Assembly (NCBI GenBank): GCA_964461785.1
Contig: CAYWWE010000002.1
Coordinates: forward strand, 3,609 to 67,608
DNA: 64,000 nucleotides
DNA from: an uncultured Bacteroides sp.
GTDB taxonomy: Bacteria > Bacteroidota > Bacteroidia > Bacteroidales > Muribaculaceae
Reading direction: 5' to 3'
How positions within the stretch are numbered: the first letter of the stretch is position 1; the number at the start of each line of letters is the position of its first letter. This document shows, in pieces, positions 42,004 through 55,233 of this stretch. The position numbers were made by a program, and so were the translations under genes. The notes under the pieces are model-generated. The model was not told where the DNA came from. It saw nothing but the letters and a program-made list of their open reading frames with translations, and ran no database searches.

Positions 42004-43326
42004 TCAAGATCTGCATCTGCGCTGTCCGTAGAGTGCTATGACGATGAAGCAGATCATCGGCAGGACAAATGATACGTTGACGGCGGGCATGGTTCCTACT
42101 GTGCCGCAATCTATGATGGCGGCCTGCACCGGAGGAAGGACCGAACCGCCGAGGATGGCCATTATGAGGCCGGCGGCTCCGAATTTGGCGTCGTCGCCCA
42201 TACCTTCAAGTGCGATGCCATAGATCGTGGGGAACATGAGCGACATACATCCCGAAACCCCGACCAGACAATAGAGACCATAGATGTCCTGGAAGAAGAT
42301 CACTCCGAGGGTGAGTAAAACAGCTACGATAGAGAGTGTGCGCAGAAGTGCCCCCGGCCGGAAATATTTCAGGAGGAATGTGCAGAAAAAGCGGCTTGTG
42401 CAGAAGATGATCATTGCGGCGATATTGTACTTCTGTGAGAGCACTTCGGCTGCCTTCTCGGCCATACCCTGTTCCATAAAGATCCTTGTGCCATACTGGA
42501 TGATGAATGTCCAGCACATGATCTGAGCGCCGACATAGAAGAACTGGGCTATCACCCCTTCCCTGTAGTGGCGGACGGCGAATATGCGGCGGATGGTGGT
42601 AAGGAACGATCCGCCCAGCTGCTTATCGCCGTTGCGCGGCATCCTGACTACCTTGATCAGGAGCATCATCAGCAAGACAACGGCACCGATGGCCAGATAG
42701 GGCTTGACGAGGATCCACAGATCGGAGTCGCGCACGGCGGCAAATGCTTCGGGCGAGAGCTCGGCGCGCTGCGCGGTGTCCATCGGGTCAAGCATGTTCT
42801 GGATAAAGTTCATGGCCACATACATACCCAGCAGCGACCCCAGTGGATTGAAGCACTGGGCAAGATTGAGGCGGCGTGTGGCGGTGTCTTCCGGTCCCAT
42901 CGTCAGGATATACGGATTGCAGCTCGTCTCGAGAAATGACAGGCCGCAGGTGAGGATAAAGTAGGCGATCAGAAACGGGAAGTATGCACCCGTCAGCATG
43001 GCCGGGTAGAAAAGGAAGGCGCCGAGGCCGTAAAGCCCGAGTCCGAGGAGCACTCCGGCTTTGTAGGAATAACGGCGTATGAACATGGCAGCAGGAAAGG
43101 CCATGACGAAATATCCTCCGTAGAAGGCAACCTGAATGAGTGTGCCGTCGGTCACGCTCATCCTGAAGATCTTGGAGAAAGCCTTGACCATCGGGTTGGT
43201 GATGTCGTTGGCAAAGCCCCACAGAGCGAAGCAGCTCGTGATCAGGATGAATGGTATGAGATAGTTGACTCCGTTGGCGGATAGTATGGATGATTGCCGG
43301 TCGGGCCGACTGGTACTGTTTGACAT
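42004..43326 (-). CDS. fucP: L-fucose:H+ symporter
   Basis: LWGFANDITNP, FLETSCNPY, RRLNLAQCFNPLG, QFFYVGAQI, MFPTIYG. Confidence 0.96.
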   Translation of the reverse strand: MSNSTSRPDRQSSILSANGVNYLIPFILITSCFALWGFANDITNPMVKAFSKIFRMSVTDGTLIQVAFYGGYFVMAFPAAMFIRRYSYKAGVLLGLGLYGLGAFLFYPAMLTGAYFPFLIAYFILTCGLSFLETSCNPYILTMGPEDTATRRLNLAQCFNPLGSLLGMYVAMNFIQNMLDPMDTAQRAELSPEAFAAVRDSDLWILVKPYLAIGAVVLLMMLLIKVVRMPRNGDKQLGGSFLTTIRRIFAVRHYREGVIAQFFYVGAQIMCWTFIIQYGTRIFMEQGMAEKAAEVLSQKYNIAAMIIFCTSRFFCTFLLKYFRPGALLRTLSIVAVLLTLGVIFFQDIYGLYCLVGVSGCMSLMFPTIYGIALEGMGDDAKFGAAGLIMAILGGSVLPPVQAAIIDCGTVGTMPAVNVSFVLPMICFIVIALYGQRRCRS

Positions 43327-43379: not shown

Positions 43380-43727
43380 CTATTCATAAAGATGGAATAT
43401 CTGCTCCATGTCCTGCCACTTGTCGGCCGACGATGCCCCCGGTTCTGAGTTCTGAAACACTGACATGAAGTCTTCCCATTCCTGCTGACGCGGAAGGGTG
43501 GCCAGACGAGTCATTGCATCGTCAAGATCGACAGTGGCGGGCACCTCGAGTATCATCACGAGGCGGGTGCCGAGCAGAAAAATGTCCATTCGGGTGATTC
43601 CAACCTCGCGTATTCCGGCAATTATCTCCGGCCATACGGCTCCTTCGGCATGACGGCGGCGATATTCGGCAATCAGCTCGGGATCATCACGCAGATCCAT
43701 TGTCCGGACATATCTTTTTGTTTCCAT
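43380..43727 (-). CDS. L-rhamnose/L-fucose mutarotase
   Basis: LIAEYRRRH, VWPEI, QQEWE, W..MEQIF; position in fuc operon; start moved to ATG 43727. Confidence 0.88.
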   Translation of the reverse strand: METKRYVRTMDLRDDPELIAEYRRRHAEGAVWPEIIAGIREVGITRMDIFLLGTRLVMILEVPATVDLDDAMTRLATLPRQQEWEDFMSVFQNSEPGASSADKWQDMEQIFHLYE

Positions 43728-43734
43728 AATCTGG

Positions 43735-45117
43735 TCAGTTGAGATTGCGAAGGGTTTCAAACTGGAGTGTAATGCTACCTATTGCCGTGGCTTCGACCGG
43801 TCCGGCGATAACTGGCAGCCCGGTCTCCTCTTCGGTCAGGCGGTTGAGATATTGGTTGCGGCTTCCGCCCCCAACGATGTTGATGGCTTCCGGCCGGTCG
43901 CTTTCGGGTAAGATAGCGATGAGGCCTTCGATGGCCTTGCGGTAGCGGCGGGCAAGCGAGCGGATGGCTACACGGGCATAATCGGCCGGGGTCACGGGGA
44001 TGTCCAGGCTGTGGTCGATGCAATAGGTAGTGATGGCCGATGCCATATTGACAGGAGCAACGAAAGCCGGATCGTCGACGTCGATTATCGTGTCGATCGC
44101 AGATTCCTGAGCCGAGGCTATGAGGTTGTCATATCCCTCGAAGATTCCGGCGGCTGTCCATCCGGCAACAAGCTGCTGGAGGATCCACATTCCCGGTATG
44201 TTCTGAAGAATACGTATGGTGCCTCCTACAGCTCCTTCGTTGGTATATCCGCAGTCAAATGCGTCGGGTGTGCATACGGGTTCGGGAATCTCCTGACCGA
44301 ACAGGCTCCATGTGCCTGAGCTGATGAAGGCCTGTCGCCGGCCATCCGACTGCTTGCGCGATGCGTAGACTGCGCAGGCAGTGTCATGGCCTCCTGAAGC
44401 TATGACGGGAACGTCATAGTCTATGCCCAGCGCGGAGGCAACCGACGGCAGGATATATCCCTTTATGCTCCCGGAGTCGATCAGCCTGCCGAACAGCCTT
44501 TCGGGCAACCCGAGTTGACGGATAAGCTGCCAGTTCCAGTCCTCTCCTCCGGCGGTGAGGAGCTCGGAAGTCGATGCTATGGTGCGTTCACACGATGCTA
44601 CGCCCGTGAGGAAGAATGAGAACAGATCGGGCATAAATAGCAGCGATCCGGCTATCTCGACCATCTCAGGCTCGCGCTCACGCAGGGCTGCGAGTTGATA
44701 GAGGGAGTTGATGTTGATCGGGAAGATCCCTGAGTCGCGGAAATGATGGAGCTTCTCCTCCGTCGTGGGCCACATACGTTCGGGAAGCCCTGCGGTGTGG
44801 GAGTCTCGATAGCAAAGAGGATTGGAGAGCAGACGGCCCGAGGGGGTGATCAGACCGAAGTCCACCCCCCAGGTGTCAATGCCTACCGACAGGATGTGGA
44901 ATCCCATGGCCGATGCCAGACGGATGCCTTCAAGCATCTCGGAATAGAGAGCGGGGAAATCCCAGTAGAGAGAATCGCCGAGACGCACCTGACGATTGGC
45001 GAAGCGATGGATTTCGGTGAGCTCGATCAGACCGTCGGGAAGCATCTCGCCGGCTATGACACGTCCGCTGCCGGCTCCGAAGTCTATTGCCAGACAGGCG
45101 TTGCGCTGACTGTCCAT
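43735..45117 (-). CDS. fucK: L-fuculokinase (rhamnulokinase/FGGY family)
   Basis: AIDFGAGSGR, GIDTWGVDF, GGHDTA, SSGTWSL, GGGSRN, GPVEAT. Confidence 0.9.
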   Translation of the reverse strand: MDSQRNACLAIDFGAGSGRVIAGEMLPDGLIELTEIHRFANRQVRLGDSLYWDFPALYSEMLEGIRLASAMGFHILSVGIDTWGVDFGLITPSGRLLSNPLCYRDSHTAGLPERMWPTTEEKLHHFRDSGIFPININSLYQLAALREREPEMVEIAGSLLFMPDLFSFFLTGVASCERTIASTSELLTAGGEDWNWQLIRQLGLPERLFGRLIDSGSIKGYILPSVASALGIDYDVPVIASGGHDTACAVYASRKQSDGRRQAFISSGTWSLFGQEIPEPVCTPDAFDCGYTNEGAVGGTIRILQNIPGMWILQQLVAGWTAAGIFEGYDNLIASAQESAIDTIIDVDDPAFVAPVNMASAITTYCIDHSLDIPVTPADYARVAIRSLARRYRKAIEGLIAILPESDRPEAINIVGGGSRNQYLNRLTEEETGLPVIAGPVEATAIGSITLQFETLRNLN

Positions 45118-45120
45118 TGC

Positions 45121-45753
45121 TCAGTGTTTACCGGTGAGCACACGGAGAGCGGCAAGGTCAGCGGCAGACATTACGCTCGTGTTTCCCTGAGTCAGCACGG
45201 CGAGGCGGCAACCCATTTCAAAGAATACCGCTTTCTGGAATGCATCGGCAAGAGACGATCCGGCAACGACCTCGCCATGGTTGGCAAGGAAGCAGCTGTC
45301 GCTCGTCTTCATGGCATCGATCACAGCTTCGGCCAGTTCAAGAGAACCAGGCATGAGATAGGGCACAACCGGAATCTCCTCGCCGACATAGATGGGTATC
45401 TCAGCGGTGAGATTGATGCTTGCGGGGGGATTTTTCATGCAGGCGATGGTCGTGGCATAGGTTGACTGGAAATGGAGGATGGCCTTCACTTCCGGACGCA
45501 TCCTGAAGATGCCGAGATGAAAGCGGGCCTCGCGCGAGGGTTTGACACCATTGAGGACGGTCTCGTCGGAGAGGCGGCAAACCGACACATCTTCAGGCCG
45601 GAGATCGCTGAGCCATGATCCGGTTGCCGACACGAGTACCTCATCGTCGGATATGCGCCATGACAGATTGCCGCTTGAGCAGAGACTGAGCTGTTCGGCT
45701 CCTGCCCGATGGGCCCATTTTATAAATTCCTGTATCTGGGATTCTGTAGCCAT
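45121..45753 (-). CDS. fucA: L-fuculose-1-phosphate aldolase (class II)
   Basis: SSGNLS, PSRE..FH, LHFQS, LANHG. Confidence 0.9.
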   Translation of the reverse strand: MATESQIQEFIKWAHRAGAEQLSLCSSGNLSWRISDDEVLVSATGSWLSDLRPEDVSVCRLSDETVLNGVKPSREARFHLGIFRMRPEVKAILHFQSTYATTIACMKNPPASINLTAEIPIYVGEEIPVVPYLMPGSLELAEAVIDAMKTSDSCFLANHGEVVAGSSLADAFQKAVFFEMGCRLAVLTQGNTSVMSAADLAALRVLTGKH

Positions 45754-45891: not shown

Positions 45892-47682
45892 TCAGCGGCC
45901 GCAGGTCTTCTTGTAGATAGGACCGTAGTTGGAGCAGGCGCGATAGTCGGCACCCTCCTTGTCCATGCCGAAGGCATTCCACGCGGCAGGACGGAAGATC
46001 TCGGTGTCGGGAATATTGTGCATGCAGACGGGGATGCGGAGTATCGAGGCCAGAGTGATCAGATCTTTGCCGATATGGCCGTAGGAGAGAGCGCCGTGGT
46101 TGGCTCCCCAGTTGTTCATCACTGAGTATACATCCTTGAAAGCATCGCGCTCAGGCATAAGGCGGGGCACAAACCAGGTGGTGGGCCATGTGGGATCGGT
46201 ACGCTCGTCGAGGATGTGATGAACCTCGGGATCAAGCTCGGCTGTCCATCCCTCGGCGATCTGAAGCACGGGGCCGAGACCCTTGACGAGGTTGAGGCGG
46301 GTCATGGTGACAGGCATGCCACCCTTGGTGAGGAAGTTGCTCGAGAAGCCGCCGCCACGGAAATAGTCGCGGTTGGCAGGACACCAGTTGGTGGCCGAAA
46401 GACACTTCTCAACCTCCTCTTCGGTGAGATCCCAGTGCTGCTTCATCTCGGGTGTGCCGTCGGCAGCTGTGGCGCGGGCAGTGGAGTCGAGGGTGGTTGC
46501 GCCGGAGTTGATGAGGTGGATGATACCGTTTGAAGCCAAACCGGTGAGCTCCTTGCCGGTGACGCGCTTCACTGCCTCGGGACTCCAGTAGGTGCGGACA
46601 TCCGAGAACTGCTGGGCGCGGTTGGTGAGGAGATGGCCGAAGAGCATCGCAACTCCGTTGCAGGCATCGTTTTCGGTGGCGAGCACGAAGGCTTCGCGTA
46701 TGCCGTTCCAGTCAAACGAGGTGTTGAGGAGCGATTCGGTGAAGTCGCCGTTGGGATAGAAGTCGGTCCACTGGCGCTGACCCTGGAATCCGCCGGCAAT
46801 GGCGTTGTGGCCGAGACTCTCTTCCTTAAATCCCATTTCGCGGAGCTTGGGATTGCCGGTCATGAGATCGCGGGCAATGATGGTCATCTTAACCACAAAC
46901 TCCCAGTCGGCATCTTTCTGTTCGCGAGTCTTGGCCTTTGCGGGGATGTTGCGGTCGGCAGCTTCGTTGACCTTGCAGTATTTTTCGGTCCAGGCCATGG
47001 CCTTCTCGTATTCGTCGTGATCATAGATCCCCTCTTCCATGCGGCGGATGATCTCTGTGAGGTCAACCGACTCGCAGCGCATACCGAGATAATCCTCGAA
47101 GAAGTCGGGGCTCACGATCGATCCGGCAATGCCCATGCACACCGAGCCCATCGAGAGATAGCTCTTGCCGCGCATTGTTGCAACGGCCTGAGCCGAGCGG
47201 GCGAAGCGGAGAATCTTTTCAGCCACATCGGCGGGGATGGTGTTGTCGTCGAGATCCTGGACATCGTGTCCGTAGATGCCGAAAGCGGGGAGCCCCTTCT
47301 GAGCGTGGGCTGCGAGAACGGCAGCAAGATATACGGCTCCCGGACGCTCGGTGCCGTTAAAACCCCACACGGCTTTGGGGTATTCGGGATTCATATCCAT
47401 GGTCTCCGAGCCGTAGCACCAGCAGGAGGTGACGGTGATAGTCGATCCTACACCCTCGCGCTCAAATTTTTCGGCGCAGGCAGCGGCTTCGGCCACGCGG
47501 CCTATTGTTGAATCGGCGATGACGCACTCTACGGGCGATCCATCGCCATTGCGGAGATTAGCTGAAATGAGGTCGGCCACAGCCTTGGCCAGATTCATGG
47601 TCTTCTCTTCAAGGCTCTCACGCACACCACCTTGACGGCCGTCGATAGTGGGGCGAATGCCTATTTTGGGATATTTCTTCAT
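45892..47682 (-). CDS. fucI: L-fucose isomerase
   Basis: [41 protein letters not shown]. Confidence 0.98.
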
Positions 47683-47726
47683 GGTTTGGTTTATCACGTA
47701 AGATTAAGTGATTTCGTTTCAGACCA

Positions 47727-48651: not shown

Positions 48652-49695
48652 TCAACCGTTGTTTTTAACATAACTCTCATCTTCCTGACCGATCCAGCGG
48701 AATAGGAAGCGGTAGAGGGGACGCACAACGTCGGGGGCCGAGAGAAAGAGATCATGGAGTCCGCCGACCACAACAACATCTGTGGCGCCATCGGCTGGAA
48801 GCGTAATGCCGATCTTCCGTATGGCTTGAGGATTGAGCACTGCGTCGGCGCTGTTGGCTGCCGGGCTCCATTCAGATCCCGAATAACCACGCTGTGAAGT
48901 CATGAGAAGGACAGGAACCTTTATACAACTCGGGTGTGAACGCAGATAATTCTGTGCACGGGTAATGGAGCGAATCCAGCCCGCTGTGACATCAGGAGAG
49001 TGGAGTGCTTTCCAGTTGGTGTTGTAGGTCCACCGGCCATTATATTGTTTCAGGAGTGAGTGGGAATAGGCGTTGCTGTCGCCTTGTTTGAATTTCATTC
49101 CGGGGATAACGGCACCTAAGGCGCTCACCAGCGGAATGGCCTTGTTGAGTTTCCCGAGATTCCAGGCAAGGAAAGGGGAGTTGAGCACGAGATTTGCAAC
49201 CGGGGCATCTGGACGCCTGGCAAGATAGTAGGCCGATGTAAGTCCTCCGGTTGAGTGGCCCATTAGGGTTATGGTCGAAACCCCGTTGCGCTTCATCACT
49301 GCAAGAGCGGAGTCGAGAGCCGGGAAATATTCCTCAAGACCGTGGCGGGCGTCGCAGTGCACCTGCCCGGGTCGGAGCGAGCGGCCATAACGCTGAAGAT
49401 CGACAGCATAAAAAGCATAGCCATGGGCCACAAAACTGTCGGCCATCTCCGCCTGAAAGAAGTAATCGTTGAAACCGTGGACATAAAGGACACCCTCGGA
49501 GCTTCTTCTAAGAGTATCTGCTGCCGGACGAATCACGGTGCAGGGGATATCCTTATCTGAGGGAAGGGATATGGTGAGAGTCTGGAATGATGATCCGAGA
49601 GCTGCTGAGTCGGGGAGCCAGCGGTCGAAAGCCGAGGCTGCCGGGGCAAGGACAATGCCTAATAAAATAGCTGCTGTTCCGAAGATGGATTTCAT
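48652..49695 (-). CDS. Secreted alpha/beta hydrolase (lysophospholipase-like)
   Basis: Signal peptide, YVHGFNDY, DLQRYGRS, GHSTGG, GLHD. Confidence 0.88.
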   Translation of the reverse strand: MKSIFGTAAILLGIVLAPAASAFDRWLPDSAALGSSFQTLTISLPSDKDIPCTVIRPAADTLRRSSEGVLYVHGFNDYFFQAEMADSFVAHGYAFYAVDLQRYGRSLRPGQVHCDARHGLEEYFPALDSALAVMKRNGVSTITLMGHSTGGLTSAYYLARRPDAPVANLVLNSPFLAWNLGKLNKAIPLVSALGAVIPGMKFKQGDSNAYSHSLLKQYNGRWTYNTNWKALHSPDVTAGWIRSITRAQNYLRSHPSCIKVPVLLMTSQRGYSGSEWSPAANSADAVLNPQAIRKIGITLPADGATDVVVVGGLHDLFLSAPDVVRPLYRFLFRWIGQEDESYVKNNG

Positions 49696-49835
49696 GAGTG
49701 ATAAGGGAGATGTGATGAGTTGAAAAAACTGTTTGAATGATCAACGAGTGCGCGCCAGTAAATGTTTTGTCAGTCCTGTGATAGAAAACGGTTGGAGCAC
49801 ACGGTTTATTTAATTACCTTTGCGCTCTCTAATTC

Positions 49836-51008
49836 ATGGATATGTCAGAAGCAAAGAAAAAAGTTTTCGTGTCGGGCTGCTACGATATGCTCCACTCGGG
49901 TCATGTGGCTTTCTTCAAGGAGGCATCTAAGTTTGGCGACCTCTATGTAGGCATAGGGTCGGATGCTACTGTTGCCGAACTCAAACACCGGCAGACGGTC
50001 TGTTCCGAAAACGAACGCCTTTACATGGTCAAGGCCATCCGCTATGTTACCGACGCTTATATCAACCGCGGAAGCGGAATGCTTGATTTTCTCGATACTC
50101 TTGATATCGTGAAACCAGACATATTTGTGGTTAACACCGACGGCGGAAGCGACGCTAAACGCAAGCTATGTGAGGATCGCGGTATAGAATATATAGAGCT
50201 TCAACGGATGCCGGATGCCGGGCTTGAGGCGCGGTCTACAACTTCGCTCCGCGCCGGCGCGAAGTCCAACATTCCTTACAGAATAGATATTGCGGGGACA
50301 TGGATCGATCAGCCATACGTGTCCAGACTCGGGGCCGGATGGGCCATTACGGCGTCGGTAGAGCCAACGATTGAGTTTAACGAGCGCAGCGGCATGTCGA
50401 CCTCCACCCGCAATGCAGCCCGGAAGATATGGCCCTACCAGCTCCCCGACTACCATGAGGAGCAGCTCGCCAAACTTCTTTTCTGTCTGGAAAACGATCC
50501 GGAGAACGACGGACATGTATCAGGCGCGCAGGATGCCATAGGAATATGTGTGGCAGGTCTCAGCCGACATTATTATAACGGCCACTACTGGCCCGAGAAG
50601 ATCGAGAGCTGCAACGACGAGGATGTACTGTCGTGGCTCGAGAGCCATATATGTCTCGTCGAGATGTTTCCCCGCCGAGAGGGATGCAACGTGACCGAGG
50701 GGATGGATCTGACAGCAGAAAAGGTAGCGGCCCTGACGGACGCAGCCGACCGCTGCTGGGATGCCATAATGGATAGAGATCTTGACCGCTTTGCAGCTGC
50801 GTTCCGCGACTCCTACGAGGCACAGACAGCTATGTTTCCCGCAATGATACAGCCCGGAGTGGAGGAGCATATCGCGCACTGGCGCGACAAAGCCCTCGCG
50901 TGGAAGATGCTCGGAGCAGGCGGCGGAGGCTATCTGGCTCTTGTCGTAGACCGGATCCCTGATGAGGGCGTGATTCCTATCAGGATCCGCCGCAAGGGGA
51001 TGTGTTGA
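49836..51008 (+). CDS. HxGH nucleotidyltransferase fused to GHMP-kinase-like domain
   Basis: GCYDMLHSGH, RSTT; then PYRIDIAG, SGMSTS, GAQDAIG, KMLGAGGGGY; TACCTTTG at 49815-49822. Confidence 0.85.
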   Translation: MDMSEAKKKVFVSGCYDMLHSGHVAFFKEASKFGDLYVGIGSDATVAELKHRQTVCSENERLYMVKAIRYVTDAYINRGSGMLDFLDTLDIVKPDIFVVNTDGGSDAKRKLCEDRGIEYIELQRMPDAGLEARSTTSLRAGAKSNIPYRIDIAGTWIDQPYVSRLGAGWAITASVEPTIEFNERSGMSTSTRNAARKIWPYQLPDYHEEQLAKLLFCLENDPENDGHVSGAQDAIGICVAGLSRHYYNGHYWPEKIESCNDEDVLSWLESHICLVEMFPRREGCNVTEGMDLTAEKVAALTDAADRCWDAIMDRDLDRFAAAFRDSYEAQTAMFPAMIQPGVEEHIAHWRDKALAWKMLGAGGGGYLALVVDRIPDEGVIPIRIRRKGMC

Positions 51009-51030: not shown

Positions 51031-51999
51031 TCACACTGTGACGACTATTTTGCCTATCTCTCCACGCTGCTCTGCCAGTTCGTGGGCGGCGGCTATATCT
51101 TCAAGCCTGAATGTGCGGGCAATGATGGGATGTATCCGTGCGCGGTCGATCAGATCCATCATGTCGGTGATTTCTTTCTGTGTCGGGGAATTGCTGTAGA
51201 ATCCGGTGAGATATACCCCGGAAGGAATTTCCTTGATCGGATCAAAATCTTTCATGCCGAATATGCCTCCGAGCAGGCCGGTGTGACATACGATTCCGTG
51301 CAACGATGTAAGCCGCAGCGACTCAAGCAGGGTAGCGGCACCGATCAGTTCGAGCACTTTAGTTGCACCATAGGGGTATTTATCGAGAAATTGCTGTCTT
51401 AGATCGGGCCCTTCGATCATGGCGTCGTCTGCTCCATATTGTCTCAGAAGACTGCACTTTTGTGTGCTGCGGGTGGTGGAAACGACTGTGGCTCCGATTG
51501 CCTTGGCAAGCTGCAGGGCTGCCAACCCCACCGTGGAGGTGCCACCACGGATAAGCAGAAGATCGCCTGACTTCAGCTGCAACGATCCTACGAGCGAGCC
51601 GTAGGCCGTGTAAAAGGTCTCCGGAATAGCGGCAAGTTCCTGCCAGTCAAGACTACTGTTGACAACAAACAGATGGCTTGCCGGCAAAAGGGCGTATTCC
51701 GAGTAGCTTCCGTCGAAACTGCGGCCCATTCCACCCATCAGGGCAATCACGCGATCGCCCTTCCTGAATCGGGTGTCGGAGGGATCTTCAACCACACCTA
51801 CACATTCGATGCCGGGTATGATCGGTTTCCGGATATATGGCCGGGCTATCTCAAACTGACGGAGAAGTATCTCGGAATGATTGATGCCGAAGGCTTTGAC
51901 TTTGACAAGCACCCATCCTGGGCGCACCGTAGGGATGGCTCTTTCGGTTAATTTCATTTCTCCGGCCTTGCAAGGCTCGGTGAGTACAACAGCTTTCAT
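51031..51999 (-). CDS. Zn-independent MDR-family (quinone) oxidoreductase
   Basis: VLVKVKAFGINHSE, PGIECVG, DGSYSEY, RGGTSTVG, GKIVV; no catalytic Zn Cys/His set; ATG overlaps the rSAM stop. Confidence 0.88.
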   Translation of the reverse strand: MKAVVLTEPCKAGEMKLTERAIPTVRPGWVLVKVKAFGINHSEILLRQFEIARPYIRKPIIPGIECVGVVEDPSDTRFRKGDRVIALMGGMGRSFDGSYSEYALLPASHLFVVNSSLDWQELAAIPETFYTAYGSLVGSLQLKSGDLLLIRGGTSTVGLAALQLAKAIGATVVSTTRSTQKCSLLRQYGADDAMIEGPDLRQQFLDKYPYGATKVLELIGAATLLESLRLTSLHGIVCHTGLLGGIFGMKDFDPIKEIPSGVYLTGFYSNSPTQKEITDMMDLIDRARIHPIIARTFRLEDIAAAHELAEQRGEIGKIVVTV

Positions 52000-53015
52000 A
52001 CTTCCTTCCAGCATTGGGGGTCAGGTGCATAAAACGAGCGGTGGTAGCCGTATGCCACAGCCGGGCATCCTCGGCAGAAGCGGAGCAATTCGCATCGCGA
52101 GCATTTCTCAAATTTCTCATGCTGACGATAGGCCTCCATTTCTTTTCCGGTCCAGAGATCATGAATTGGAGTGTGGAAAAGATTGCCTACTACGCTATCA
52201 AAGCGGCGGCAGGCCATGACACTGCCGTCGGGCTGAATGGTGAAATGGCAGTCGCCGCAGTGACATCCGTCGTAGATAGCCTCAGGATCGCTGTTGGCCG
52301 GAATCTGAAACAGCCCTTTCTCATAAAGATACAGGGTCCACAGATGATCCTTGAGGTTGAAGACGGTCGACGAATCCTTATGCTGCTCAAACTTTTTCCA
52401 GATGCGGTCGAGGAAGTCGCGGTATTCAAGCGGCGAGATATGAGTAGATTTTTCTTCGGAGGTGGGGCAATAACGTCCGAAGGCAAACAGGTCGACCCCT
52501 TTGTCAACTACCAGGTCAATAATGTCGGGGATCTCGCTGATATTTGTACCGGAGACGGTTGTCATTACCGCAACCCGTATACCGGCTTTTTTCAGGACGT
52601 CAATCTTGTCGATGGTAGTGTCGAACGATCCGGGCTTTCGAATGGAGTCGTGGGTGTCTCTCATTCCGTCGAGCGACAACTGATATTTGGCGCATCCCAT
52701 GTCTTTCAGGCGGATGCACACCTCATGGGTGAGATGAAAAGGATTGCCAAGGATCGTGAATGGAATATCACGCTCCTTAAGGAGTGAGAGAATCTCCCAA
52801 AAGTGTCGGTGAAGGATGGGATCGCCACCTGTTATATAAAAATATGGTAGGCGGTGTATCTTCCGGCACATCTCCTCACATTGAGCGACAACCTCCTTCG
52901 CCCTTTCGAGTGATATCTCGATCAGGTGTGGATGTCCTTCCGAGAAAATGTAGCAGTGTTCGCAGCGCTGATCGCAGCTATCGGTTATGTGCCACTGGAA
53001 AGCAAAATATTCCAT
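51996..53015 (-). CDS. Radical SAM/SPASM peptide maturase (ACGX-system type)
   Basis: QWHITDSCDQRCEHCY (CxxxCxxC), ITGGDP, SLDG; SPASM Cys array GCHCGDC, MAC, CSRCELLRFCRGC, DPQC. Confidence 0.92.
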   Translation of the reverse strand: MEYFAFQWHITDSCDQRCEHCYIFSEGHPHLIEISLERAKEVVAQCEEMCRKIHRLPYFYITGGDPILHRHFWEILSLLKERDIPFTILGNPFHLTHEVCIRLKDMGCAKYQLSLDGMRDTHDSIRKPGSFDTTIDKIDVLKKAGIRVAVMTTVSGTNISEIPDIIDLVVDKGVDLFAFGRYCPTSEEKSTHISPLEYRDFLDRIWKKFEQHKDSSTVFNLKDHLWTLYLYEKGLFQIPANSDPEAIYDGCHCGDCHFTIQPDGSVMACRRFDSVVGNLFHTPIHDLWTGKEMEAYRQHEKFEKCSRCELLRFCRGCPAVAYGYHRSFYAPDPQCWKEV

Positions 53016-53141
53016 ATCATAGATTTATGTTCCGTATTTAATGGTTTCTCGCCATGGGGCGAGCCGTGATAAAACGACAGACTCCGACAGAAAGGCGGGT
53101 TGCTCAGCTGCCGGAGTTGTCGGGGAGGGTACTGGACGGAG

Positions 53142-53315
53142 TTATTTTTCTCCTGCACCGCAAGCCGAGCCACATGCTGCGGGCTTGGGTTCGGGTTTTT
53201 CCTCGCCGGCTCCGCAGGCAGAGCCGCATGCGCCTGAGGGTGTTTCGGTTGCGGCCTGAGCACAGAGATATGCCTGTGCGGTGTGCTTTACGGCACTATT
53301 GGCAATACGCTTCAT
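53142..53315 (-). CDS. ACGX-repeat RiPP precursor peptide, 57 aa (not in ORF track)
   Basis: Hand translation MKRIANSAVKHTAQAYLCAQAATETPSGACGSACGAGEEKPEPKPAACGSACGAGEK*; directly upstream of and co-oriented with the rSAM/SPASM gene. Confidence 0.88.
   Translation of the reverse strand: MKRIANSAVKHTAQAYLCAQAATETPSGACGSACGAGEEKPEPKPAACGSACGAGEK
53148..53231 (-). repeat. Two 30-nt direct repeats encoding ACGSACGAGE (53202-53231 and 53148-53177)
   Basis: gcatgcggctctgcctgcggagccggcgag vs gcatgtggctcggcttgcggtgcaggagaa; 7 differences, all at third codon positions. Confidence 0.95.
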
Positions 53316-53360
53316 AATCGGATGGGGTTGATTAGAGGGTTAAACATATTTTTTCAATGA

Positions 53361-53368
53361 CAAAATTA
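53361..53368 (-). promoter_or_regulatory. -7 promoter element of peptide-rSAM-oxidoreductase operon
   Basis: TAATTTTG on minus strand, 45 nt upstream of the peptide ATG. Confidence 0.65.
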
Positions 53369-53394
53369 ATCTGTTATGGTCTATTGATCAAGAG

Positions 53395-53430
53395 CTTACG
53401 AAAGGGTAACCAAGTAATATATTTGTTACT
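53395..53430. promoter_or_regulatory. Candidate HxlR-family operator
   Basis: CTTAC-N6-GTAAC, AGTAA-N8-TTACT and GTAAC-N14-GTTAC inverted half-sites between divergent promoters. Confidence 0.45.
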
Positions 53431-53518
53431 AATAATGATTTTCAGATGTTTGCATGAGATAAAATTTTTATAAAAAATTATTATTTGCCAGAGGGTTGCA
53501 ACTGTCTGCAAGATGGAG

Positions 53519-53526
53519 TAACTTTG
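53519..53526 (+). promoter_or_regulatory. -7 promoter element of hxlR-like gene
   Basis: TAACTTTG, 19 nt before ATG 53546. Confidence 0.7.
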
Positions 53527-53545
53527 CGGATAAACAGCAAAGAGA

Positions 53546-53917
53546 ATGAGAAGAAAAGAGCAGCTTAATTCCATCATAGAGATCTGTCCGGTCAGAAATG
53601 TTGTGGCCCGTTTCGGCAATAAATGGGCTTTGCTTGTCATACTGGTCCTGAGCGAGAATGACCCGATCCGGTTCAATGATCTGGGACGTAAGATACCTGA
53701 CATTTCATCGCGGGTGCTATCGTCGACACTGAGGACTCTTGAAGCCGACGGGCTTGTCAGCCGCGAATACTTTCAGGAGGTTCCTCCGAGAGTGGAATAT
53801 TCGCTTACCGACACAGGGCGATCACTGGTGCCGATCATTGTGCAACTCACTGAGTGGGCTCAAAAAAACATGAAGACCATTATCGAGCATCGACGTCTCA
53901 GCACTCCTGAAAGCTGA
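53546..53917 (+). CDS. HxlR/DUF24 winged-helix transcriptional regulator
   Basis: CPV...GNKW, RFNDL, ISSRVLSSTLRTLEADGLV, VPPRVEYSLT. Confidence 0.95.
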   Translation: MRRKEQLNSIIEICPVRNVVARFGNKWALLVILVLSENDPIRFNDLGRKIPDISSRVLSSTLRTLEADGLVSREYFQEVPPRVEYSLTDTGRSLVPIIVQLTEWAQKNMKTIIEHRRLSTPES

Positions 53918-53988: not shown

Positions 53989-55233
53989 ATGGCATCCGAT
54001 TCATCTGTAAAGCCGGCACAGACCACTACCGCCGACTTATCTTCTGCTCCCAAACATTATGGCCTCTTTGTGGTGTTCATTGCCATAATAGGCGCATTCT
54101 CCTCGCTCGTCAACGATATGTACCTCCCGACAATTCCTTCGATGATGAAGGAGTTTCACACTACGCCTTCGATGACCCAGATGGGCATATCGATGGCTAT
54201 GATCGGAATGGGTCTCGGCTCGGTATTATGGGGCTCGGCAAGCGACCACTACGGGCGCAAACCGATTTTGATCGGGTCGCTGATAATATTTGTGATAGCA
54301 ACTGCGCTCTCACTGTTTTCGCGCAATATAACTTTCTTCATAATCTGCCGTCTGTTTCAGGGGCTTGGAGCCGGTGGAGCAATGGTGCTATCCACCTCTA
54401 TCCCGGCCGATGTCTATATGGGGCGTCAACTTGCCAAACTCATGGCTATTGTAGGTGCCATCAACGGTGTGGCACCGGCTCTCGGGCCTGTTGTCGGTGG
54501 TTTCATGGCCGATTGGGTCGGATGGCATGGAATATTTGTTGTTCTCCTCGTGGTAGGGGTTGTAATGACTTTCTGGACCACACATTATACTGAGACGCTC
54601 CCTCCGGCGCGCCGTCTTAAGGCACAGAGTCTCAAGGGCTACGTCAAAGCCTACCGATCGCTGTTTGCCAACGGTCGCTTCATGCTCTATGTCACGATCA
54701 AAGCTGTTGCGATTGGTCTGCTGTATGCCTATATATCGTCTGCGCCCTTTATCATACAGACACACTATGGATTCAGCGCCATGACTTTCGGACTGATTTT
54801 CGGAGGAAACGCACTTGCCATGAGCATAGGTTCATCGCTCGCACTGAAATTTAAGGTGATGAAGCAGGCTATGGTCGTCGGTTGTTTCGGTATGTTTGTG
54901 TTCGCCGTAGCAGAAGCGTTCGTGATGTGGCATGAAACACCGTTTATCTATTATGAACTATGCGCCATACCGATGCTTCTGTTCTCAGGCATGATCTTCT
55001 CAAGTGCCAACACACTTTCGATGGAGGTAGGACGTGATGAGGCCGGTACAGCTTCGGCTATCCTCAGTGTGGTGAAGTATGCTTTCGCTGCCGTTGTGTC
55101 GCCTCTCGTAGGTCTCGGAAATATCTTCCACTCCACGGCAATAGCATACGTTGCCGTGACCTCGGTAGCGGTAGTGCTCGCATGGCGCGCCATACGCCTC
55201 GCTCCTTTAGCCGATATGGAGAGAACTAAATAA
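53989..55233 (+). CDS. Bcr/CflA family MFS efflux transporter
   Basis: DMYLPTIP, SDHYGRKP, RLFQGLGAG, PALGPVVGG; about 12 TM. Confidence 0.92.
   Translation: MASDSSVKPAQTTTADLSSAPKHYGLFVVFIAIIGAFSSLVNDMYLPTIPSMMKEFHTTPSMTQMGISMAMIGMGLGSVLWGSASDHYGRKPILIGSLIIFVIATALSLFSRNITFFIICRLFQGLGAGGAMVLSTSIPADVYMGRQLAKLMAIVGAINGVAPALGPVVGGFMADWVGWHGIFVVLLVVGVVMTFWTTHYTETLPPARRLKAQSLKGYVKAYRSLFANGRFMLYVTIKAVAIGLLYAYISSAPFIIQTHYGFSAMTFGLIFGGNALAMSIGSSLALKFKVMKQAMVVGCFGMFVFAVAEAFVMWHETPFIYYELCAIPMLLFSGMIFSSANTLSMEVGRDEAGTASAILSVVKYAFAAVVSPLVGLGNIFHSTAIAYVAVTSVAVVLAWRAIRLAPLADMERTK

Follow-up and report, generated by a model that had tools for sequence, protein, structure and literature searches.

The window, by which we mean the whole 64,000-nucleotide stretch of DNA that was analyzed, carries at 49836..51008 on the + strand a single intact ORF with an ATG start (as given in the ORF listing), whose 390-aa product, P0001, consists of an HxGH nucleotidyltransferase domain followed by a mini-GHMP fucokinase-like domain. 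Every motif quoted in the first-pass annotation of this DNA is present in the translation: GCYDMLHSGH at residues 14-23, EARSTT at 131-136, RIDIAG at 149-154, SGMSTS at 185-190, GAQD at 230-233, and GAGGGG at 360-365. The gene is monocistronic, lying between an alpha/beta hydrolase gene upstream (48652-49695), which is divergent from it, and a reductase gene downstream (51031-52014), which is convergent with it. A promoter-like sequence read from the + strand, TACCTTTG, is located at 49815-49822, 13 nt 5' of the ATG, and matches the -7 box TAnnTTTG, which we take to be the Bacteroidetes-type promoter consensus. The orientation of the flanking genes and this putative box fit the annotation's description of the gene as standing alone with its own promoter.

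A fucose catabolic operon lies on the opposite strand and ends 2.1 kb upstream of the P0001 gene, and the start of its fucI gene (47697) is at the distance of about 2 kb that the annotation had given. The operon contains fucP (42004..43326, - strand), encoding an L-fucose:H+ symporter (TIGR00885, 622.6 bits; cut-off, 280.4), and fucK (43735-45117, -; Pfam FGGY), fucA (45121-45753, -; Pfam Aldolase_II), and fucI (45892-47697, -; Pfam Fucose_iso). Between fucP and fucK there is a gene for a 109-aa RhaM-family mutarotase (43389..43715, -; PF05336, 100.8 bits), which reaches 31.8 bits against a cut-off of 99.6 for the rhamnose mutarotase equivalog and whose probable substrate, judged by the operon it belongs to, is L-fucose. 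FucP is the probable supplier of L-fucose as substrate to P0001, and fucK, fucA, and fucI constitute a catabolic branch that is a rival for the same imported fucose. Within the window, the P0001 gene shares an operon with no fucose gene.

We considered other genes in the window as partners of P0001 and rejected them. The MFS gene at 53989-55233 is unrelated to the FucP genes that precede homologues of P0001, and the region downstream of the closest homologue, in G209, lacks the convergent reductase and radical-SAM genes (51031-53015). The group at 51031-53917, which consists of the reductase, a radical-SAM/SPASM enzyme, a small Cys-repeat peptide, and an HxlR regulator, appears to be unrelated to the P0001 gene, being absent downstream in G209.

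Domain architecture and the putative fucose site

Residues 1-141 (49836..50258, + strand) form a domain with a cytidylyltransferase-like Rossmann fold, whose features include the motifs HSGH (residues 20-23; nt 49893-49904, +) and RSTT (residues 133-136; nt 50232-50243, +) as well as Lys50. PF01467 (CTP_transf_like), the sole Pfam domain found in P0001, matched residues 12-137 with 47.6 bits (cut-off, 21), and TIGR00125 scored 47.5 bits (cut-off, 27.7), which together with HSGH and RSTT places the domain in the cytidylyltransferase-like superfamily. The best NCBIfam match of the domain, rfaE_dom_II (TIGR02199), reached 51.7 bits against a cut-off of 181.5, and the HldE (NF008454) and TagD (TIGR01518) models gave 35.8 and 33.2 bits against cut-offs of 521 and 165.4, respectively.

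An AlphaFold model of P0001 built on an alignment of 42 diverse homologues (A1) had a pLDDT of 93 and replaced a single-sequence model with a pLDDT of 35. Exhaustive structural comparison matched residues 6-126 to 3glv (Z 16.9), the Fom1 CyTase 5x3d (Z 16.3), TagD 2b7l (Z 16.0), HldC 5x9q (Z 15.3), and ECT 4xsv (Z 15.0), and a profile search matched the domain to ECT 3elb with an E value of 2.5e-28. The nearest sequence relatives of the domain use CTP (ECT, TagD, Fom1) or ATP (HldC), and we know of no GTP-using enzyme with the cytidylyltransferase-like fold. The HldE/HldC group (RfaE domain II) acts on a beta-configured sugar-1-phosphate and so provides a precedent for the making of an NDP-sugar by the HxGH fold. 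HldE also combines this fold with its pathway's kinase in one protein, although that kinase is of the PfkB type and that of P0001 is of the GHMP type.

The C-terminal domain (residues 142-390; 50259..51005, +) is a shortened GHMP kinase. In the A1-based model, the closest solved structure to residues 142-387 by exhaustive comparison was 9iip, the fucokinase part of Bacteroides fragilis Fkp crystallized with beta-L-fucose-1-phosphate (Z 22.2, rmsd 2.8 Å over 229 residues, 23% identity). GHMP kinases other than 9iip were 9-20% identical, with galactokinases and mevalonate kinases next (9-17%), and the best Foldseek match of P0001 was the heptokinase WcbL. Z scores of 18-22 to many GHMP kinases, together with motifs I and III, identify the fold as GHMP, motif II being divergent. 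At the sequence level this part of the protein matches Fkp and HddA weakly: the Fkp model NF009948 scored 24.6 bits (cut-off, 721) over residues 308-371 only, and the HddA model NF049969 scored 11.3 bits (cut-off, 600). The Pfam GHMP models, including GHMP_kinases_N, gave no score on P0001; PF08544 matches its relatives P0140 and P0145.

According to PMC11982464, Asp762 of Fkp serves as the general base, Arg592 stabilizes the leaving group, and fucose is contacted by Trp599, which stacks on its C4-C6, by Asp601 and Thr602 at O3/O4, and by Gln761 at O4; loop 712-720 binds the phosphates. We paired residues through an HMM alignment to 9iip and a profile-profile alignment to Muribaculaceae Fkp kinases, in which R592, W599, D601, G759, Q761, and D762 of Fkp correspond to R149, W156, D158, G230, Q232, and D233 of P0001. 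Five of the six fucose-contacting side chains of Fkp are kept, the sixth, Thr602, corresponding to Gln159, and most paired active-site positions are invariant or nearly so across the P0001 family. The combination by which we would recognize an Fkp-type fucokinase, namely a GHMP domain with the equivalents of Arg592, Trp599, Asp601, Gln761, and Asp762, is present in P0001. On the + strand, motif I and the fucose site (R149-Q159, placed by the HMM alignment to 9iip) occupy nt 50280-50312, the phosphate loop SGMSTSTR (residues 185-192) nt 50388-50411, the GAQD sequence with the putative general base D233 (residues 230-233, aligned by hhalign with GWQD of Fkp) nt 50523-50534, and motif III, GAGGGG (residues 360-365), nt 50913-50930.

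Adenine binding in Fkp has been proposed for Asp644, Met645, Pro666, and Ile669 (PMC11982464). Between motif I and the phosphate loop, P0001 has ~36 residues and Fkp ~120, leaving ~84 missing, and because this stretch is shortened, D644, M645, P666, and I669 have no counterpart. The phosphate loop is also atypical, with SGMSTSTR in place of GSGLGSS. Kinase activity is not assured, since the residues proposed to hold the adenine in Fkp lack equivalents in P0001.

Relatives, gene neighborhoods, and distribution against Fkp

Relatives of P0001 fall into >8,000 clusters at 90% identity; at 50% identity, 238 clusters have E values of <1e-30. Named members come from Muribaculaceae, Prevotella, Dysgonomonas, Paludibacteraceae, Chloroflexi, and Planctomycetota, with one chytrid record; the planctomycete member (P0163, 37% identity) extends the family to the PVC group. 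The general base Asp, the Arg, a Ser/Thr-rich phosphate loop, and GAGGGG are conserved across phyla. The chytrid record is a 419-aa homologue (P0187, 36% identical to P0001 in A1) on a 120-kb contig of Batrachochytrium salamandrivorans, and represents either contamination or a eukaryotic member.

We examined gene neighborhoods at 80 species-level loci whose homologues, found with a 10-sequence alignment (A2), are 60-79% identical to P0001, calling neighbor genes by tblastn within 6 kb on contigs many of which are cut short. FucP was found in 31 of these 80 loci, Fcl in ~24, Gmd in ~22, and a mutarotase of the fucose-operon (RhaM) type in 22, so that 53 of the 80 have at least one of the four, mostly directly beside the homologue and in the same orientation. 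Curated models applied to the neighbor genes gave 413 bits for FucP (cut-off, 280), 574 for Gmd (415), and 477-504 for Fcl (500). The gene order is gmd-mutarotase-fucP-homologue-fcl on one small contig (G218) and, at another locus (L013), a Gmd-like SDR identified by Pfam only, then fucP, the homologue, and fcl. Many homologues lie inside capsule loci, and the closest relative (83% identity; G209) occupies the same position beside fucPKAI-sodB-hydrolase as the gene in the window. No heptose genes were present in the loci whose genes were annotated. Two contigs with 74-78% identical homologues (L037 and L043), labeled as Lachnoclostridium and Eggerthellaceae MAGs, are probably mis-binned, given such identity to Muribaculaceae genes. 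A 449-aa paralogue (32% identity) is encoded among cation antiporter genes in G034 (L017:9235-10584, - strand); its scores of 110 bits (HddA-like) and 86 bits (rfaE_dom_II) are much above those of P0001, and it may activate a different sugar.

Several relatives are fused to further domains. One combines a RhaM mutarotase with the HxGH and kinase domains (P0126), one a nucleoside phosphorylase (PNP_UDP_1) with the same pair (P0145), one Gmd with the kinase part (P0147), and two a GT2 or GT32-like glycosyltransferase with the kinase part (P0180 and P0207); some of these five may be gene-calling artefacts. In three other 90% clusters (P0262, P0274, and P0275, with the example L023:233-3931), the HxGH domain is fused ahead of a full-size Fkp-like protein, for a total of 1,160-1,260 aa. 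The pyrophosphorylase-like part of P0262 and P0274 keeps 32 of 131 Fkp-invariant positions (24%), vs. 86-89 of 172 (50%) in the kinase part, and the positions that match Lys89 and His272 by offset, an approximate mapping, are lost. On first view, proteins with both domains would speak against the HxGH domain as a stand-in for the pyrophosphorylase. By these counts, however, the pyrophosphorylase-like part looks degenerate. Because it is poorly kept in P0262 and P0274, the HxGH-Fkp fusions fit replacement of a decayed pyrophosphorylase, and the three clusters may represent an intermediate in that replacement.

Among 151 Muribaculaceae genomes sampled, 30 have a P0001-type gene and 12 have the Fkp pyrophosphorylase domain, and no genome has both. 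In the genus of the window, where 54 of 69 genomes have Fkp and nine have a P0001-type gene, two genomes (G023 and G218) have both, 52 have Fkp only, seven have the P0001-type gene only, and eight have neither. Seven of the nine carriers therefore lack Fkp, while 52 of the 60 non-carriers have it (Fisher p 1.7e-4, which is overstated, since related genomes are not independent). Seven of the eight genomes with neither gene are <90% complete. The gene occurs in at least four different contexts among the carriers of this genus, which speaks for several independent gains. Fkp and the P0001-type gene appear interchangeable in genomes.

The genome to which the window belongs is 97% complete, and in it we found no Fkp and neither Gmd nor Fcl above cut-off. 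GalK and IspE are the sole canonical GHMP kinases that it encodes. Five GH29 fucosidases are encoded in this genome; a Pfam search for GT10/GT11 fucosyltransferases gave no match in it, the controls being silent in the same searches.

Candidate function and competing explanations

We consider it likely that P0001 is an L-fucose 1-kinase and fucose-1-phosphate nucleotidyltransferase in one, with GDP-L-fucose as the most probable product, and that it displaces Fkp although the two are not orthologues. The simplest account of the data is a compact, non-orthologous substitute for Fkp. L-fucose is indicated as the sugar by the kept residues of the Fkp fucose site, the fucP, gmd, fcl, and mutarotase neighbors, and the anticorrelation with Fkp, and GDP-L-fucose is favored as the product because gmd and fcl are interleaved with the gene in relatives and because Fkp is replaced in sister species. 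The same three lines of evidence argue for the suggestion in the first-pass annotation of an Fkp-analogous, one-protein salvage enzyme that would make an NDP-sugar. The annotation had added that the motifs alone could not identify the substrate; residues, neighborhoods, and distribution now allow L-fucose to be named.

Both enzymatic activities, the order of the steps, and the nucleotide are what we infer from the observed fold, kept residues, neighborhoods, and distribution. Free L-fucose would be released by the GH29 fucosidases, imported by FucP, and probably converted to the beta anomer by the RhaM-type mutarotase. Phosphorylation at O1 would follow in the C-terminal mini-GHMP domain, where Asp233 would act as the general base, the phosphates would be held by Arg149 and the SGMSTSTR loop, and the sugar by Trp156, Asp158, and Gln232. 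In the next step, the N-terminal HxGH domain would couple the resulting beta-L-fucose-1-phosphate to an NTP, yielding a nucleotide-fucose for surface glycans. A more specific proposal, which we regard as tentative, is that the HxGH domain represents the first guanylyltransferase with the cytidylyltransferase fold, or else makes a nucleotide-fucose not described before (CDP- or ADP-L-fucose), and that it is joined to a mini-GHMP kinase which has no canonical adenine pocket and perhaps borrows the nucleotide binding of the fused domain. If this is true, a 390-aa enzyme would perform salvage of the GDP-fucose type by chemistry that is novel for either fold.

The same two-step activation of fucose could instead end in CDP- or ADP-L-fucose for use by dedicated transferases, as might be expected from the CTP or ATP dependence of the best relatives of the N-terminal domain (ECT at E 2.5e-28, TagD, HldC) and from the fusion of HxGH to Fkp-like proteins that still have a pyrophosphorylase-like domain. 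We think such a product unlikely, however, given that the GDP-fucose-forming genes gmd and fcl are interleaved with the P0001-type gene, that this gene replaces Fkp within genera, and that the pyrophosphorylase-like part of those fusions looks degenerate; in addition, GDP-beta-L-fucose is described in PMC11982464 as the donor of all L-fucosyltransferases. It is also conceivable, although we rate it as quite improbable, that the C-terminal domain binds a sugar or sugar phosphate without acting as a kinase, making P0001 a plain fucose-1-phosphate nucleotidyltransferase, which is how a paper on Akkermansia words the function (PMC13313206). The loss of ~84 residues including the adenine pocket of Fkp, the atypical phosphate loop, and the failure of Pfam GHMP_kinases_N to detect the domain would all suit a binding module. 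Against it, the general base Asp, the Arg, the phosphate loop, and GAGGGG have been conserved across phyla, and the genome of the window has neither Fkp nor another candidate fucose 1-kinase, only GalK and IspE.

A different sugar or alcohol activated for capsule decoration, such as NDP-heptose, D-arabinose, L-galactose, or a CDP-alditol, seems to us highly improbable. Such a role could be read from the many homologues in capsule loci, from rfaE_dom_II and WcbL as the best NCBIfam and Foldseek matches, and from the apparent acceptance of D-arabinose by the Akkermansia protein Amuc_1591 (PMC13313206), but the fucose-contacting residues are kept and FucP, above its curated cut-off, is the commonest neighbor. 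NDP-heptose, an ALPK1-type agonist, had been raised as one possible product in the first-pass annotation, which proposed a search for gmhA. That search found no match in the 97%-complete genome; rfaE_dom_II (51.7 bits vs. 181.5) and the HldE, HddA, and TagD models fall far short of their cut-offs, P0001 has the Trp that stacks on the sugar in fucokinase, and the annotated loci contain no heptose genes. We rejected P0001 as an NDP-heptose synthase on these grounds; the CDP-alcohol and NDP-heptose readings are poorly supported.

Like Fkp of B. fragilis (949 aa; structures 5yys, 9iip, and 9iit), P0001 would take free fucose to a nucleotide-fucose within one polypeptide. Its kinase domain is homologous to that of Fkp, and the two share the fucose-site residues Arg, Trp, Asp, Gln, and Asp. 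As the annotation had said, the fold joined to the kinase in Fkp is a different one: Fkp has the PF07959 pyrophosphorylase domain, whereas P0001 lacks PF07959 and has the unrelated HxGH Rossmann domain in its place. The transferase of P0001 is N-terminal and directly abuts the kinase, the kinase is shorter, lacking ~84 residues of the stretch that joins motif I to the phosphate loop, and the whole protein has 390 aa vs. ~950. To our knowledge, Fkp is the only bacterial fucose salvage route studied until now, and surface fucose of bacteria shapes how the host perceives gut Bacteroidales. P0001-type enzymes are very common, with >8,000 clusters at 90% identity and carriers in 30 of 151 Muribaculaceae genomes vs. 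12 with Fkp. Since the P0001-type gene seems to take the place of Fkp, reconstructions that use only Fkp, Gmd, and Fcl would mis-score genomes, including that of the window, as non-fucosylating. If it activates fucose, a 390-aa one-pot enzyme would also be a handy biocatalyst.

The function proposed here is not new, as the same design was proposed in 2026 for Amuc_1591, and P0001 is a further member of that recently proposed family; we found no GHMP-cytidylyltransferase fusion described in the literature in capsule or Bacteroides contexts. What is new is the within-genus exchange with Fkp, the finding of no detectable alternative GDP-fucose route in the genome of the window, the placement of the missing adenine-pocket segment, and the interpretation of the HxGH-Fkp fusions. 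Amuc_1591 of Akkermansia muciniphila was reported, without biochemistry, as a "putative fucose-nucleotidyltransferase" (Gut Microbes, June 2026; PMC13313206), the nucleotide being unnamed and kinase activity unclaimed; it was mutated in all twelve D-arabinose-resistant mutants, and L-fucose rescues. Compared by that paper's description, both proteins have an N-terminal adenylyl/cytidylyltransferase and a C-terminal compact sugar-kinase-like domain, and P0001 has the make-up described for Amuc_1591, an HxGH domain with a compact Fkp-like sugar domain in ~380 aa. The two carry the same NCBI name, "adenylyltransferase/cytidyltransferase family protein," and the C-terminal domain of Amuc_1591 superposes on Fkp 9IIP with the fucose-1-phosphate contacts kept (PMC13313206), as in P0001. 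The structural neighbors listed in the supplement of PMC13313206, 5x9q (HldC; Z 16.1) and 5yys (Z 15.9), are shared with P0001, 5x9q matching its N-terminal domain and 5yys being, like 9iip, a structure of B. fragilis Fkp. The settings differ, in that Amuc_1591 forms one transcription unit with murJ (PMC13313206), whereas the P0001 gene is monocistronic beside a fucose catabolic operon. The numbering of two Amuc_1591 point mutations is slightly inconsistent in that paper: they are placed 459 nt (153 codons) apart in supplement S1 of PMC13313206 and appear as V176G/G326E (150 apart) in its text.
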